A DNA stretch of 64,000 nucleotides from Dictyostelium discoideum. Taxonomy: Eukaryota. Below the pieces are notes generated by a model. That model was not told the DNA's origin. It searched no databases and saw only the letters and a list, made by a program, of their open reading frames with translations. A program made the position numbers and the translations under genes. Shown in pieces: positions 6,895 to 53,100 of the stretch. The stretch covers positions 3,072,001-3,136,000 of the forward strand of contig CM000150.2 of NCBI GenBank assembly GCA_000004695.1, read 5' to 3'. How positions within the stretch are numbered: position 1 is the first letter of the stretch; every line of letters starts with the position of its first letter.

Positions 6895-9800
6895 TTAATT
6901 CTTATTTTGATATTTATAGTTATTTAAAGTTAAAGAAAATAAAACTACTGGTAGTGAAGATAATAATTCAGATAAACCGGCCAAAGCAGGTGGAATTGTA
7001 AACCATGGATATAAAATACCACTTGAAAGAGGAATACCTAAAAGATTATAGATGAATGCCCAAAATAAATTAAATTTAATAGTTTTGAAAATTGATTTTG
7101 ATAAATCAAAACAAACCAAAATATCATTTAAATCATTTTTTAGTAATATAACACTTGATGATTCAATTGCAATATCTGTACCATTTGAAATTGAAATACC
7201 AATATCTGATTGAACCAAAGCTAATGAATCATTTACACCATCACCAACCATTACAACAATTGATTTATTTTTACCATTATTACTATTATTATCACTGCCA
7301 CTACAACCAACACTGGCACCATTAAAACCATCACCACCATCAGTACCACAACAATTATCTTCAGTTGTATTATAACCTTGTAATTTTCTAACGATATTGA
7401 ATTTATCAATTGGTAATGCTGAACCAATAATATTACCCGAATTAATATTTAATTGTTCACCAATTGATTGAGTTGCTCTTTTATTATCACCACTAACTAA
7501 CCAAACATCAATACCATTATTTTTTAATTTTGAAATTACTTTTTTTGCTTCTGGTTTCAATTTATCAGATAATGAAACTAATCCAATAATTTTCTCATTC
7601 ATTGATACTAAAATTACTGTTTTCCCTTGATTCTCTAATTTATCAATATCATTTTGAATCACTGAATTAATTATAACTTCCTTTGATTGACTTTTTGATA
7701 GTTGTGATGATGACGAAGAGCAACAACCTTTCTTACAATCACTACCATTGCTAATAGAAGTTGGTGGTGGTGCTGGACAACAACCTTTCTTACAATCACT
7801 GCTATTGCTAATAGAAGTTGGTGGTGGTGGTGGTAATGATGGACAACAACCTTTCTTACAATCACTACCATTGCCAGTAGAAATTGGTGGTGCTGCTGCT
7901 GCTGGACAACAACCTTTCTTACATTCACTGCCATTGCTAATAGAAGTTGGTGGTGGTGGTGGTGGTGGTAATGATAGACAACAACCTTTCTTACAATCAT
8001 CAGATTTTGAATTAATTAATTGACTTGATTGTAATGGTGATTGACAAGAATCAATTTTATTATTATTATTTGATAATTGTTCAACAATAAAAGATTGATT
8101 ACCAACCATAATTTTATTATTATTAATAAAAGAAATAATACCTTTTCCAGGATGAACTTCACTATTTGTTGGTTCTTGTAGTGCTTTTTCTAAAGTGAAT
8201 TGTTGAATTGCATATTGTTTAATTGATTTACCAATTAAATGTTCACTTGATAATTCAGCGGATGCAGTATAGAAAAAGAATTGTTTTGGTGAAATTGATT
8301 GATCATATATTGAGAAATGATTTATATCGATTTCACCAGTTGTTAAAGTACCAGTTTTATCAAATATGACCTTGTTGACTTTACTTGCCAATTCAATTAC
8401 TTGACCACCACCTTTGAATAGAATACCAAATTTCTTTGCACCAATTGCACTACCAACCATAATTGATGTTGGCGTTGCTAATGAGATCGCACAAGGACAT
8501 GAAATTACCATTAATGACATACTAATTTTAATTGCAAAAGTGAATGCTGATTGATTATCAGTGGCAATGACAACATTATAGTGAATTAAACAAAACCAAA
8601 CTATAAATGTAATTATTGAGCATATTAATATGGTTGGTACGAAATAAGATGCAACTAAATCTGCATAGTTTTGAAAGTTTGGTTTAATTGATTGACTCTC
8701 TTCAACCAATTTAATAATATTTGATAATGCTGTATCATTTGAATGTTTTGTAACTTTAATAATTAAACAACCCTTTTGATTCATTGTTCCACCAAAAACG
8801 TAATCATCAATTCTCTTATAGACATGATTTGCTTCACCAGTTATAATTGATTCATCAATATATCCACCATTACCTCTAATTATAATACCATCAGTTGGAA
8901 TCTTTGTAAATGGTAATACTTTTAAAATATCACCTTTTTCAATTAACTCTTTTTCAATCATTATTTCTTGTTCACTACCTACATCTTTATTATTATTATT
9001 TGATAATAGAATTGCATTTGATGAATCTAATTGTTTCATTTTTTCGACTAATACATTTGATGCTTTTGATTTTGCTAAGTGTTCTAAATATCTACCAAGA
9101 ATAATTAATGTTAAAAGTATAACACAAGTTTCAAAGAAAATTGGACCATTATAATTCAATGAGGAGAAATGATTTAAAATTAAATTAATTAGAGAATAAA
9201 AGTAAGCAATCGTACTACTTGTCATAACTAATAAATCCATACTACATTTTCTTGCATAAATCAAAGTTTTCCAAGCTGAAATATACAATGGTTTACCACA
9301 ATAAAATTGAATTGGTGTTGCAAATGATAATAATAATAAAATTGACATTGTAATACCTTTACCAATTTCAAATTCCATAACTTCTTTAACTGATTTAATA
9401 TTTGGAAAAATATATGAAATTAAAATTGTTGGTATAAATAATAAAATACAAAACATTAATAATGATTTTAAGTTATTATTATTATTATCTTTTGAATTAT
9501 TATTCTTATTATTGGAATTATTATTATTATTTAATTTTGTATTTGGTTGAATTTTAAAATTATCACCAAATATAAGTTGGATTTCTTTTAATAGATTACG
9601 TGGTCCAATTTTATCAGTATCATAAACAATTGTAAGTTTATCATTAACCGAACCAGATTCTTCGATAGCATCTAAAACACCATCAATTGATAATTTAATA
9701 TTTTCAATTAATTGATCATTTAATATTGTTGTTAATGTTGAAGTTGGTGATAATGATATGATTTCAATTGTAATTTGATTTGAATTTGATGATTGACCAT

Positions 9801-11055
9801 GAACTTGTTTACCAACAAATCCAATATTTTCAATAACTTGTAAGATTTGTTGTGGTTGTATAATCATTGGTGAATAATTAATCTTACATTTACCAGTGAA
9901 TAAACTAGTTTGAATTTCATTTACACCTGATAATGATTTCATTTTTTGTTCTAATGTAGTTACACAATCTGCACATGTCATACCTGAAATCATTAAATGT
10001 AATTCAACTTTTTCTAATGATTTTGATAATGTTGATGATTGAGATGATTTTATACCTGTTGAATTTTTAAAATTATTTGTTGTTGTTATTGGTAATAATT
10101 CAATTGATACATTATTATTTGTGGATAATCCTTTATTATCCCTTTCTTCTTGTTGTTCAATATCCACCTTATCTTCATTCAATTCACTATAGCCAACTTT
10201 AAATCCAAATGTTCCACAAGTTTTAGAAAACATTGTTGCAAAGATACGTTTCTTTCTTTGTTGATCACTATTGTAATCATTGTTATTGTCATCTGATGAT
10301 GAGGATGAACGCATAAAACTAAAGTTTGGTACTCCTACACTATAAGTTAAACAACAAACTTGTTTACAACAATCAACTTTACAGCAATGGCCTGTTACAC
10401 AAATGTTGCAACAGTATGTTTTGGTTGATTCTACTTGTTGTTTTGGTTGTTCAGTTGGACAACATCCCTTTTTACAACCAATATCATTGGTTTCAGTTGT
10501 TTTTGATGATGATGAGCAACATCCTTTTTTGCAACTACCTTTATCATCCTTGGTGATCATTTTTTCATCATCGGATGGAGTTGGACAACAACCTTTCTTA
10601 CAATTGTCATTGGATGTAGTTGTTGTAGTTGTTGTAGTTGTTGTTGTTACCACTGGTGAAGAAATGGTATAATCTTTTTGAAAGTTTGGCTCCATAATGA
10701 TGGCACTGTTTAAACTATCCATATCCAATGAAACAATTGACCCAACATTAGAATTTGATTTGTAATTTTTAGGAACACCATCATCATCATCTTCTTCTTC
10801 ATCCTCGTCTTTGTCCCTATCTTCATCATTGTTTGTTAATAATGATTTCTTTTCACCACAACATCCCTTTTCGCATTGTTTTTTTGTTTGTAATGTTGGT
10901 GGTGGTGATGGTGGTGTGATGAAAATTATATCATCTTGGTTATCATCTAAAACTACTTTTGAGTTATTATAACTATTGGTGAAGATAACTTGATTAAATA
11001 ATGGGATACCTTCATCATAATCATAATTATCATCTTCTCCTTTAAAGTCTCCCAT
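6895..11055 (-). CDS. P1B-type heavy-metal (copper)-transporting P-type ATPase with one HMA domain and multiple CxxGCC Cys-rich repeats
   Basis: Continuous ORF. The probable true start is MGDFKGEDD (ATG at 11055..11053; the upstream part of the ORF is poly-Lys from poly-A). HMA motif GMTCADCV (about 9965-9990). TM6 CPC (ISCPCAISLATP, about 8490). DKTGTLT (about 8345-8370). SEHLIG (SEHP-like N-domain motif). GDGVNDSLAL (about 7235-7250). N-terminal CEKGCC/CKKGCC x4 and an internal tandem CKKGCC-Pro-rich insert x5. Confidence 0.9.
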   Translation of the reverse strand: MGDFKGEDDNYDYDEGIPLFNQVIFTNSYNNSKVVLDDNQDDIIFITPPSPPPTLQTKKQCEKGCCGEKKSLLTNNDEDRDKDEDEEEDDDDGVPKNYKSNSNVGSIVSLDMDSLNSAIIMEPNFQKDYTISSPVVTTTTTTTTTTTSNDNCKKGCCPTPSDDEKMITKDDKGSCKKGCCSSSSKTTETNDIGCKKGCCPTEQPKQQVESTKTYCCNICVTGHCCKVDCCKQVCCLTYSVGVPNFSFMRSSSSSDDNNNDYNSDQQRKKRIFATMFSKTCGTFGFKVGYSELNEDKVDIEQQEERDNKGLSTNNNVSIELLPITTTNNFKNSTGIKSSQSSTLSKSLEKVELHLMISGMTCADCVTTLEQKMKSLSGVNEIQTSLFTGKCKINYSPMIIQPQQILQVIENIGFVGKQVHGQSSNSNQITIEIISLSPTSTLTTILNDQLIENIKLSIDGVLDAIEESGSVNDKLTIVYDTDKIGPRNLLKEIQLIFGDNFKIQPNTKLNNNNNSNNKNNNSKDNNNNNLKSLLMFCILLFIPTILISYIFPNIKSVKEVMEFEIGKGITMSILLLLSFATPIQFYCGKPLYISAWKTLIYARKCSMDLLVMTSSTIAYFYSLINLILNHFSSLNYNGPIFFETCVILLTLIILGRYLEHLAKSKASNVLVEKMKQLDSSNAILLSNNNNKDVGSEQEIMIEKELIEKGDILKVLPFTKIPTDGIIIRGNGGYIDESIITGEANHVYKRIDDYVFGGTMNQKGCLIIKVTKHSNDTALSNIIKLVEESQSIKPNFQNYADLVASYFVPTILICSIITFIVWFCLIHYNVVIATDNQSAFTFAIKISMSLMVISCPCAISLATPTSIMVGSAIGAKKFGILFKGGGQVIELASKVNKVIFDKTGTLTTGEIDINHFSIYDQSISPKQFFFYTASAELSSEHLIGKSIKQYAIQQFTLEKALQEPTNSEVHPGKGIISFINNNKIMVGNQSFIVEQLSNNNNKIDSCQSPLQSSQLINSKSDDCKKGCCLSLPPPPPPPTSISNGSECKKGCCPAAAAPPISTGNGSDCKKGCCPSLPPPPPTSISNSSDCKKGCCPAPPPTSISNGSDCKKGCCSSSSSQLSKSQSKEVIINSVIQNDIDKLENQGKTVILVSMNEKIIGLVSLSDKLKPEAKKVISKLKNNGIDVWLVSGDNKRATQSIGEQLNINSGNIIGSALPIDKFNIVRKLQGYNTTEDNCCGTDGGDGFNGASVGCSGSDNNSNNGKNKSIVVMVGDGVNDSLALVQSDIGISISNGTDIAIESSSVILLKNDLNDILVCFDLSKSIFKTIKFNLFWAFIYNLLGIPLSSGILYPWFTIPPALAGLSELLSSLPVVLFSLTLNNYKYQNKN
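7724..7995. repeat. Tandem coding repeat, 5 units of 57-72 bp (each encodes D/E-CKKGCC-P/A-rich-TSISNGS) within the ATPase CDS
   Basis: Repeated block caacaacctttcttacaatcactgccattgctaatagaagttggtggtgg... seen 5 times on the + strand. It translates on the minus strand to the CKKGCC...PPPP...TSISNGSD units. Confidence 0.85.
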
Positions 11056-11467
11056 TTTTTTTTTTTTTTTTTTTCTATTTCTATAAAAAAAAAAAAGTAT
11101 ACTTTTTTCTTTTTCTTTTTCTTTCTTTTTTTTTTTTTTTTTTCTTTTTTTTTTTAACACAGAACACTGATTATTATGGAGTCGATTTCTTTAATAATAA
11201 AAAAAAAAATAATAATAAAAAAAAAAAAGAAATTTTTAATCAAAAAATCTGAATTTTCCAAAAAAAAAAAAAATAAAATTTTTATGCGTTTATATTTAGT
11301 TTTTATTTTTAGTTGTGCCACGTTGGGAATTGCTTCTTTTTGGTGGTTATTTAATTATTTAAAAAAAAAAAAAAAAAAAAAAAACAATATTACAAATATA
11401 AAAGAATAATTGAAGTTATATTATAAAATAAATAGATATTAAATATCAAAAAAAAAAAAACCTAAAT

Positions 11468-50183: not shown

Positions 50184-53100
50184 TGTAATTGAAGAAGTAT
50201 TAGTTGAAGAAGTAATAACTTGATTAGTTGATAATAAATCAAATTTCCAATATGAAGATTCCAATAGATTAGCTTCTTCAGTACCAACGATATTCATATA
50301 AGTTTCAGAATCTGCAGAACATGGAATTGGTAATAAAGAGTTATTTTGTTCATCAAAAGAAGGTGGAACATAAGGATAATTCTTATAGAAATTATAGTTC
50401 TTTTCCATTTTCTTTCTCATACGATATGGACCTTCAGTTGAATCCAATTTCCATTTATCAAGAGGATGAGGTTCAGAAGGACCCCAAACAGCACGTTCTC
50501 TTGTGATTTGAGCTCTCATATTTTCCCATTGAATTGCATTGAATTTTTGTTTATCACTTTCCAATTGTTTAATTTTCTTACGACGATCACTTTCACTACG
50601 AACGAAATATTGAGCTTTCTTGGTGATATGTTTAGATTTCTCTTCTTGATGAGATTGATCCTTACGATCTTGACGTTGTTTCTTTGAGAGTCTTTCAGTT
50701 CTACGTGATTTCAAAGATGGTAATGTATGTTCTGAAGAATGTTTCTTTTCATTATTTTTAAAGGATAAATGTTGTTTCTTTGGATTCTCTTCAAATACTT
50801 GAGTTATGGTTTGAATATTATCATTAATCCAAAGTTTAAATTCATCATTATTGAAAGCACCATTACCCGAAGTATTACGTAATAATTCAAAGCCTGGTTT
50901 CAAATCAATGATTTCACTTTGACGTTGATTTGAACCACTTGAAACTTTTAATTGTAGTACCGTGGCAAGCGACTCAATATATGATGAAGTTTTCAATGAT
51001 AGTAATAGCCTCCAAAGTTTAATTGAATTATCTACATGTTCATGCTGATCGCTAATTACCAACTTGTACAATGGATAACAAAAAGCATTCATAAAATCTG
51101 AATCCAAATTATTCTCTGAAAAGATAATTCTTTGATGATTTATAATATGATTTGCAACAAAAGATAAATCAGTATCAGTGGTATGATTGATTAAATATAG
51201 AATGATACGATTTAAACTCTTGTATAGAGATTGAACTGTTTTTTGAAGACCAACTCTATCGGCCTCCAATTTCTCTAAAATCTTTACAATGAATAAAAAG
51301 ATTCTCTTTGCAATGATGATTTTATTATTCTTTACCAATTGATCCAAGTTTACTCTATCGACCAACATTGAAGATAACTTTATGAGATTGGAATGAACAC
51401 GTTCATTATCAAAGAACTCGGTCTTGGTGATATTGGTTTCAACGACATACATTAAATCAAGTAAAATTCTTGAATGATATAAAATAAACTCTTCATCTGT
51501 TGCTGTTGTTGGTGCACCCTCTAATACCATCTCAATGATACTAATTGCCTTTGAAGTTTTTCTCATTGCTGATAACATAATTTGACAAAGGAATTTAACT
51601 ACTAAATCCAATACTCTATCTTTGATACCATTGGTTTGACCTGTACTATTATAAAGTGGTGGTAAATTAATTTTACCATTTGGGAATAGAATTGAAATTA
51701 ACTCTTCAACCATTGGTTGACTATAACATTCTTGTTGGAAATATTGATTCTCATGAAAGAGATAAATGAAATAAGTTAACATTGTATATTGTAAATTTGA
51801 CGATTCTTCTGGTGTTGCAAATTGTGATATCTTTAATTCTGGTAACATTTCATCATATAAATTAAAATTAATTGGTTGATTATCACCAACACTAACACCA
51901 CCACCACCACCACCACCACCACCACCCAAAGCACCATTCAATTTTGAGTCATCATCCATACCAGTAACTCTGTTATGTAAACTTGAACCATTTGGTGTAT
52001 TTGTAACACTATCATCACCACCAGTACCTAAATTTTTAGATTGGAATGGACTTGATTGAATACTCATTCTATTCTTTTTCTTTAAAGCTGCTTGTTGAGC
52101 ATCAGTTGCACCTGTACTATTTTCATCGATTGCACCTGTTGTAACTGCAAATTCTAAAGTTTTCTCTTCAAATTTATTCCATAAATTACCAAATTTAGTT
52201 ATAGTTGAAGCTAATCCACTAGTTGGTGTATTATTATTATTATTACTATTACTACTATTAACTAATGTTGATGATGAAGATGATGATGATATATTTGATG
52301 AAATTGAAGAAGATGAAACTGATCTTGAAATTGTTTGAAAAGTTGATAATGGTGAATTACTATTGTCATTATTATTAATACTATTATTTATATTTACATT
52401 TGAAATTAATGAAGATAATAATTCATCATTGTCTAAACCTTGATTTGCATTTTGAAGTTCTTGTTGTTTTTGTTCTAAATATTGATAATTATCTTCATAA
52501 GATCTTTTAATTAGGGAAAGTATTAATTGAGCAGCTTCGATACAATATAAACTCTTTTCAAAAGGAGTAAAAATTCTTAAGAGTTCATGGAATACAATGG
52601 TTGTACCACCAGCACCACCAGAACTACTTGATAAATCTAAATCTACCAATAATTTTGGATCGCCACCCAAAAGTAAATGTAATAAACATAGATAGATCTC
52701 TTGATGACCTGATAAAGATGGTAATACCTTTTCCAATAGTTTGAAACCACTCTTTTTGATAAAGGTTGAACAATAGTCGTATTTATATAAAAAGAAGATA
52801 CAAGTCACACGTAAAGCCAATGAAACTGTCAATGGTGGTAAATTTTCATCAATGAAAAAGAAACACCAATACGATGATACTCTTCTAAAGATTGCTGCAG
52901 TCTCTTGAGTTTGACAATTTGAAACAACCTTTAAGAATGTATAAAATACATGATTAACCAATTGAATGGTTGCAGTATTTGATAATTCCATAGTTGCTAA
53001 TTTACTACGATGAATTGATTTTCTTCTAGAGGATGTCGATGAAGTAGAGGATGATGACGATGATGATGATGGGGTTGGTATATCTTTATGAAGATGTGAA

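Follow-up and report, generated by a model that had tools for sequence, protein, structure and literature searches.

The locus considered here raises a simple question: why should a P1B-type metal pump carry a tandem array of three-cysteine motifs inside the nucleotide-binding (N) domain of its catalytic core, and does that array handle metal? The locus lies in a 64,000-nucleotide stretch of Dictyostelium discoideum DNA (the window; positions are counted from its first letter), where a P1B-type ATPase is encoded by a single exon at 6895..11055 on the minus strand (1386 residues, stop codon included in the coordinates); all features of this gene given below lie on that strand. The product matches XP_646096.2 (UniProt Q55DN5) of D. 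discoideum AX4 with 100% identity; the gene is already annotated, and its database entry reads "P-type ATPase" only. What is new is a thiol-repeat array that sits inside the N domain, has expanded recently and varies in copy number, and to which another lineage has a convergent counterpart.

A preliminary description of the stretch had counted nine CxxGCC motifs in this protein, five of them in tandem. A search of Q55DN5 with the pattern C..GCC returned exactly those numbers, four matches being N-terminal and five lying in the tandem array. The N-terminal motifs are one CEKGCC (residues 61-66, 10858..10875) and three copies of CKKGCC (motif 2, residues 152-157, 10585..10602; motif 3, residues 175-180, 10516..10533; motif 4, residues 194-199, 10459..10476), and the five CKKGCC of the array start at residues 1021, 1045, 1066, 1088 and 1107. 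When the residues of the protein were shuffled 20,000 times, at least one motif appeared in 107 of the shuffles and never more than two, and the back-translated pattern TGYAARAARGGNTGYTGY has eight matches in the window, all within this gene, where none would be expected. From these two tests, the nine motifs are not explained by chance. The first 350 residues contain 22 Cys in all and match no Pfam family.

The array (7720..7995) follows the scheme [DE]CKKGCC-(P/A-rich)-TSISNGS and has units of 72, 63, 66 and 57 nt, after which it ends in a lone core; the five cores are located at 7978-7995, 7906-7923, 7843-7860, 7777-7794 and 7720-7737; these lengths reproduce the 57-72 bp periodicity noticed earlier at the DNA level. 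Tandem Repeats Finder reports the same repeat at 7721-7999, with a period of 63-66 nt, 3.6-3.9 copies and 80% matches. The array occupies most of a D. discoideum-specific insert of approximately 128 residues (residues 1000-1127, 7675..8058), which contains 16 Cys (12.5%), 21 Pro and 28 Ser and matches no Pfam family even at E<=10.

The insert falls between well-known landmarks of the catalytic core. Downstream of the DKTGT phosphorylation motif (residues 899-903, 8347..8361) come the SEH of the SEHP-like N-domain motif (residues 937-939, 8239..8247; here SEHL), a GKG at residues 970-972 and the VGN strand of the N domain (residues 984-986, 8098..8106), which lies a short way upstream of the insert, and the GDGVND hinge motif (residues 1271-1276, 7228..7245) follows it. 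In a phmmer alignment with OsHMA4 (8q73), query position 990 pairs with residue 735 and query position 1123 with residue 736, leaving about 130 residues extra. An alignment of 15 sequences has residues at the insert position only in the two D. discoideum sequences and none in the 13 homologues from other species. Landmarks and alignment thus agree in placing the array between the SEHP-like motif and GDGxND, inside the N domain, as the preliminary description had it, and the characterised pump and the homologues show no ordinary N-domain segment at this point.

An AlphaFold2 model was built from the 15-sequence alignment for residues 520-1386 (mean predicted local distance difference test score, pLDDT, 70.6). 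The insert is modelled without secondary structure at pLDDT 26-37, as against 74-92 for the neighbouring blocks, and lies between N-domain helices 987-1001 and 1131-1142. The array is thus predicted to be a disordered excursion from the loop that joins these two helices, around which the modelled core fold remains intact. Foldseek places the model closest to ATP7B (7si6, E=2e-44), OsHMA4 and LpCopA.

Could the repeats be an annotation artefact, lying in an unrecognised intron or created by an error of assembly? The preliminary description had named the intron as a possible refutation, and we found no point in support of either possibility. The GC content of the insert is 0.385, versus 0.28 for the coding sequence and 0.11-0.16 for the flanking intergenic DNA, and the insert DNA (7675-8058) contains no GTAAGT-like splice donor. 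The reading frame is kept across four independent D. discoideum assemblies despite their differing numbers of units, the two array indels between AX4 and ACTFIR (63 and 54 nt) are both in frame, and the gene models for the locus are identical in two independent assemblies. Because its GC content is high, it has no donor-like site and its indels between strains are in frame, we take the insert as coding; the probability that we would still give to an artefact is negligible, and for practical purposes it is excluded.

The remainder of the protein looks like a P1B pump for heavy metals with its catalytic machinery complete. By Pfam there is a single HMA domain (residues 354-413, 9817..9996, E=2e-10) bearing GMTCADC, which bears out the single classical HMA domain described before, followed by E1-E2_ATPase (residues 695-875) and a HAD hydrolase match split in two, with E=1e-41 for PF00122 and E=2e-20 for PF00702; TIGR01525 gives 497 bits (cut-off 346). 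The transmembrane CPC metal site is at residues 853-855 (8491..8499), and a TGE is found at residue 739. All classical catalytic residues belong to invariant alignment columns, among them DKTGT, H939, G970/G972, G985 and GDGxND. The pump appears functional because these residues are invariant and the modelled fold is that of P1B pumps. At the SEHP position (8236-8247, residues 937-940) the His is invariant and the Pro varies within the dictyostelid clade (SEHL, SEHH and SEHV in D. discoideum, D. purpureum and C. fasciculata, respectively).

The insert is a recent, polymorphic expansion specific to the D. discoideum lineage. Orthologues, which represent every major dictyostelid group, were obtained from D. 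purpureum, Tieghemostelium lacteum, Polysphondylium violaceum, Cavenderia fasciculata, Acytostelium subglobosum, Heterostelium album and one EukProt species, and the insert is missing from all seven. The distance from DKTGT to GDGxND is 200-223 residues in these dictyostelids (median 212.5 over 160 relatives), compared with 372 in the five-unit alleles, as in AX4, and 410-411 in the seven-unit D. discoideum alleles. Over the four D. discoideum assemblies the array has five units in AX4 and ACTFIT and seven in ACTFIR and ACTFIW, so that the repeat number differs between strains; together with the near identity of the units and the absence from the other species, this upholds the recent expansion that had been proposed from the sequence of one strain.

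The units are also uniform at the DNA level. We compared the 12 cores (18 nt each) of two strains, AX4 and ACTFIR: nine read TGTAAGAAAGGTTGTTGT and so agree at synonymous sites too, TGC is the last codon of the terminal array core in both strains, and in one core of one strain the first Cys codon is replaced by AGT (Ser). Differences between the linkers are chiefly CCA/GCA slippage with a few point changes, and when all four assemblies are counted, 23 out of 24 cores in the insert are intact, and it is the linkers that vary. As a separate observation, a (CCA)n-type trinucleotide run matching the insert's run of Pro codons is present elsewhere in the window (51890-51926), where it looks like an unrelated simple repeat.

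These data invite the main rival explanation, in which the array is a neutral or near-neutral coding minisatellite tolerated in a disordered surface loop and contains CKKGCC only because such a unit happened to be duplicated. Uniform synonymous sites in the cores require no selection, the copy number is five or seven depending on the strain, one core already lacks a Cys, no other dictyostelid has the insert, and the same gene carries poly-Asn and poly-Thr tracts. Against this, the cores stay intact while the linkers change, and the roughly fifteen free cytosolic thiols would be expected to bind soft metals even without any selection for it. Two further findings, on the N-terminal motifs and on other lineages, also count against neutrality, and with all of this considered we regard it as a rather unlikely account, though a serious one.

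The first of these findings concerns the unit itself. The preliminary description had listed the four N-terminal C[EK]KGCC motifs among the departures of this protein from the usual P1B layout; within its clade they are no oddity: a search of the other dictyostelid ATPases found the motif N-terminally in every orthologue, with 4-11 CxxGCC motifs in each, and fungal proteins with Pfam HMA_PCA1 have repeated N-terminal C[KN]KGCC and CKKECC. The N-termini of eight dictyostelid species hold 46 CxxGCC motifs, of which 38 are exactly CKKGCC. The linkers between them are unalignable from species to species, with lineage-specific tandem expansion in H. album and T. lacteum, and the retention of the motif amid such linkers implies long-term purifying selection on it. 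In this clade, the array of CKKGCC at the N-terminus is of old standing and has been conserved. It is followed by a conserved Cys cluster, YCCNICVTGHCCKVDCCKQVCCLT (residues 214-237, 10345..10416), which has no Pfam match and whose form YCCxxCxxGxCCKxxCCxxxCCLT (core CCxxCxxGxCCxxxCCxxxCC) is found in seven of eight dictyostelid species, H. album having diverged. The insert is built from this same unit, whose strong conservation throughout Dictyostelia and in fungi speaks against an accident of history.

A possible donor can be named within the gene. The N-terminal motif at residue 152 is encoded by the codons that the insert units use, and 23 nt are identical between it and them (ATTGTAAGAAAGGTTGTTGTCCA, 10582-10604); one further match extends over 29 nt at 93%. 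The remaining N-terminal motifs differ from the insert units in their synonymous codons. From rough D. discoideum codon frequencies, we estimate that chance alone would yield the same codons about 1 time in 5. The insert may derive by ectopic copying of the residue 152 unit, for which the match is too short to serve as proof. Recombination between motifs is visible in the N-terminal array of ACTFIR, whose locus (L001) is syntenic with that of AX4 and has the same neighbours, a thiolase and a NAD-binding protein. Relative to AX4 it has a 57-nt deletion that removes one motif, and the junction (10459-10533 region) is a chimera of the cores at residues 175 and 194 (TGC AAA AAA GGA TGT TGT CCA…). 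From this chimeric junction, motif 3, which is missing from the seven-unit alleles, appears to have been lost by unequal crossing-over with motif 4.

The second finding comes from other lineages. When relatives were scanned for a long distance between DKTGT and GDG, we found a metagenomic protein with Glu in the eighth transmembrane helix (TM8), P0081, which has a CC-rich insert (DDCCKP, KPCCKP, DSCCSA) directly after VGKRSFV, in the same N-domain loop. Its relatives P0168-P0171 have inserts of 150-300 residues made of repeated di-Cys units in that loop, and P0170 and P0171 have an additional CC-rich insert directly after DKTGT. The source of P0169 is a 199-kb JGI metagenome contig; in the 5.9-kb locus taken from it (L002), the ATPase is an apparently intronless ORF (open reading frame) of 4884 nt (L002:501-5384) with flanking genes about 50 nt away. 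Like Q55DN5, these proteins have AGLSELLSS in TM8; their repeated di-Cys inserts (DSCCK.., VDSCCS.., GGCSSKK) follow VGK.SF, at the loop that bears the insert of Q55DN5. They differ from it in their repeat unit, which is much longer and has no sequence relation to that of Q55DN5. Because seven dictyostelid species have no insert, the parsimonious reading is that the two lineages gained theirs independently. Such convergence upon di-Cys inserts at one loop argues for function, and it is difficult to reconcile with a neutral repeat that happened to contain Cys.

Cys-rich additions were also seen elsewhere in catalytic domains. Three eukaryotic Cu-ATPases with Met at the TM8 position, P0007 (from Linnemannia, a Mortierella-like fungus), P0116 and P0128, have a CxCxxCxC (CxCxxCxCxxCxC) cluster in a later N-domain hairpin, and a fourth, P0125, has a Cys-rich stretch directly before GDGxND. 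Q55DN5 itself has a second, smaller insert in its phosphorylation (P) domain before GDGVND (residues 1230-1262, 7270..7368, ...EDNCCGTDGG...VGCSG..., pLDDT <50), which contains EDNCCGTDGGDGFNGASVGCSG and whose Cys are specific to D. discoideum; the D. purpureum version is shorter and free of Cys, and most relatives have no insert there. Cys-rich additions to the catalytic domains thus recur among eukaryotic P1B pumps, and a literature search found no paper on them.

To which kind of pump, then, does the array belong? The preliminary description had called the protein a Cu-ATPase, and part of this stands. The TM7 motif N-x6-YN-x4-P of P1B-1 pumps is present as NLFWAFIYNLLGIP, with YN at residues 1336-1337, and the protein passes TIGR01511 (Cu-ATPase) with 456.9 bits against a cut-off of 397 and falls below TIGR01512 (Cd/IB2) with 286.9 against 313.5. 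The fungal PCA1-like protein P0010 gives the same outcome on both models, and because it scores alike, TIGR01511 fails to separate Cu pumps from PCA1-like pumps. What does not stand is the Cu(I) ligand in TM8. In Cu(I) transport both the Met and the Ser of the MxxSS motif play an important part (PMC4285229), and our protein has Glu1363 in place of this Met (6967..6969, within AGLSELLSS). This Glu is kept in all dictyostelid orthologues and in the fungal PCA1-like proteins, and among the relatives examined the TM8 residue is Met in 122 and Glu in 23.

Other characters point the same way. The CPC helix reads SCPCAI in both the fungal HMA_PCA1 proteins and the dictyostelid proteins, and both have AGL[SG]E..S.LPV in TM8, a stretch that reads AMAxSSVSVV in canonical Cu(I) pumps. 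A neighbour-joining tree of 158 core sequences, calculated without bootstrap and without S. cerevisiae Pca1, contains one bipartition of 26 members, all of them Glu-type, that unites the dictyostelids, four fungal HMA_PCA1 proteins and metagenomic proteins, with one aberrant Glu-type sequence falling outside. PF24534 (HMA_PCA1) matches residues 345-530 of Q55DN5 weakly (E=0.029, 14.5 bits against a cut-off of 24.5), compared with E=2e-23 for P0010. We conclude from the TM8 residue, the shared motifs and the tree that Q55DN5 is probably a PCA1-like, Glu-type P1B pump and not a canonical Cu(I) ATPase; to call it a Cu pump is an assumption, and the ion that it moves cannot be read from its sequence. 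The Glu-type subgroup, whose members combine a CPC metal site with YN in TM7 and Glu in TM8, is poorly characterised, the usual P1B-1 signature does not predict its ion specificity, and that specificity bears on how amoebae handle Cu, Zn and Cd during predation on bacteria.

With moderate confidence, we favour the view that the insert array provides auxiliary thiolate sites for reversible binding or sensing of soft metals within a PCA1-like pump, acquired through a lineage-specific expansion. CKKGCC, already N-terminal in the subgroup, also became established in a permissive surface loop of the N domain in the D. discoideum lineage, and repeat recombination, through slippage or unequal crossing-over, then enlarged it to a coding minisatellite of five or seven units according to the strain. 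The product is a string spaced by Pro and Ser and predicted to be disordered, with about 15 thiols (five three-thiol motifs and one extra Cys), around which the N domain keeps its fold. On the analogy of the N-terminus of Pca1 and the tails of HMA2 and HMA4, it would most likely bind Cu(I), Cd(II) and Zn(II) reversibly, and the bound metal could give a local capacity for buffering or hand-off near the pump or make the N domain responsive to metal. The metal sink or sensor suggested in the preliminary description is, on the same analogy, plausible.

A bolder form of this idea, which we consider unlikely, makes the array a metal switch, in which loading of the thiols with Cu(I)/Cd(II) would compact the loop and so couple metal load to ATP turnover or to stability of the protein. 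Compaction would alter the dynamics of the N domain or its contacts with the N-terminal Cys/HMA region, Glu-type P1B pumps would have evolved the device on two or more occasions in this loop, in D. discoideum as well as in the lineage of P0081 and P0168-P0171, and the alleles with five and seven units would tune it.

Several observations weigh against assigning the array a role in metal binding or sensing. Because the cores are identical at synonymous sites, selection on the insert is not demonstrable, recency or concerted evolution being sufficient to explain their uniformity, and D. discoideum is reportedly very prone to the expansion of coding repeats. The link to the residue 152 donor rests on just 23 identical nt. 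As seven other dictyostelids do without the insert, the array is not essential to the pump; this, together with the one core that tolerates a change from Cys to Ser, makes its role probably auxiliary rather than essential. The string 'CKKGCC' occurs in no indexed paper, and in the Dictyostelium literature on cadmium, P-type ATPases and metallothionein we found nothing specific to this gene. Three Cu-type P-ATPases are mentioned for Dictyostelium, of which ATP7A is the only one studied (PMC5770829).

Two other roles for clustered thiols have to be set beside metal binding. The Cys triplets, flanked as they are by Lys, could be sites of S-acylation (palmitoylation) that tether the pump to membranes or sort it among them. 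Vicinal Cys next to basic residues recall the acylated clusters of SNAP-25, CSP and GAP-43, and the long flexible loop of the AlphaFold2 model could reach a membrane; an N domain anchored by lipid would, we infer, be hindered in the large movements of the P-type cycle, and the comparable Cys-rich region of Pca1 binds Cd and Cu (PMC10654040, PMC5909057). This makes palmitoylation very improbable as the purpose of the motifs. We give slightly less credence again to a redox-sensitive element, whose reversible disulfides would report oxidative stress and modulate the activity or stability of the pump. The local density of thiols is high, and the authors of the PcaA study speculate about an antioxidant role for its N-terminal Cys-rich region (PMC5909057), but the context of a heavy-metal pump and the conservation of the motif beside the HMA and CPC sites point to metals instead.

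If the array binds metal, it would offer a natural allelic series (no units in D. purpureum, five and seven in D. discoideum) for the tuning of a pump by thiol repeats, as well as a permissive and functionally interesting insertion site for engineering. The array is recent, varies in copy number and occurs in a model organism open to genetics, where its role is directly testable.

One point concerns the 5' end of the gene. The uninterrupted ORF on the minus strand covers 6895..11160 and so extends beyond the annotated ATG at 11055. The added segment (11056-11160) is an A-rich tract that would give a Lys-rich low-complexity sequence if translated; it is noncoding DNA, either 5' untranslated region or promoter, and the database models begin at 11055.

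Set against known systems, the array resembles several and coincides with none. Like metallothioneins, the insert is rich in Cys, poor in aromatic residues and provided with vicinal Cys, and metal-thiolate sites would be expected in it. Classical metallothioneins consist of about 30% Cys, whereas the insert has 16 in 128 residues, separated by long Pro/Ser spacers, belongs to no Pfam family and forms part of an enzyme domain.

The tails of the Arabidopsis pumps HMA2 and HMA4 are similar in presenting repeated vicinal Cys in a disordered cytosolic segment of a P1B pump. The di-Cys tail of HMA4 has multiple nanomolar Zn sites and is needed for full function, and the number of di-Cys motifs (6 in HMA2, 13 in HMA4) varies between close species (PMC6255694). 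Unlike our insert, these tails are C-terminal, belong to P1B-2 Zn/Cd pumps, use CC rather than CxxxCC and have no Pro-rich spacer.

ATP7A and ATP7B have an insert in the N domain itself, between beta3 and beta4, that is dispensable for ATP binding and is thought to be regulatory (PMC3308323). It is long, flexible and variable between lineages, as is the insert of Q55DN5, and differs in being neither Cys-rich nor tandemly repeated and in preceding the VxIGN strand. We considered whether the two sites might be the same and rejected this, the insert of the vertebrate ATP7-like protein P0005 lying before VIIGN and the Dictyostelium insert after IMVGNQSFIVEQ, between two helices.

The closest counterparts are Pca1 of S. 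cerevisiae, PcaA of A. fumigatus and the fungal PCA1-like pumps (P0010 and P0011 of Colletotrichum, P0013 of Phialocephala), in which, as in Q55DN5, a single HMA domain follows a long Cys-rich N-terminus. The fungal PCA1-like proteins also share with it the repeated C[KN]KGCC, SCPCAI, the TM8 Glu and a place in the same neighbour-joining clade. In the Cys-rich N-terminus of yeast Pca1, binding of Cd masks a degron, and Cu is sequestered there independently of pumping (PMC10654040, PMC11050377, PMC5909057). The fungal members examined differ from Q55DN5 in having no N-domain insert, with 195-206 residues between DKTGT and GDG, and P0010 differs in its score for HMA_PCA1, which in Q55DN5 is below the cut-off; the comparison was made with these fungal relatives. 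The known regulatory metal modules of P1B pumps sit at the termini of the protein, as HMA domains, as the N-terminus of Pca1 or as the tail of HMA4, whereas the array described here lies inside the domain that binds ATP.

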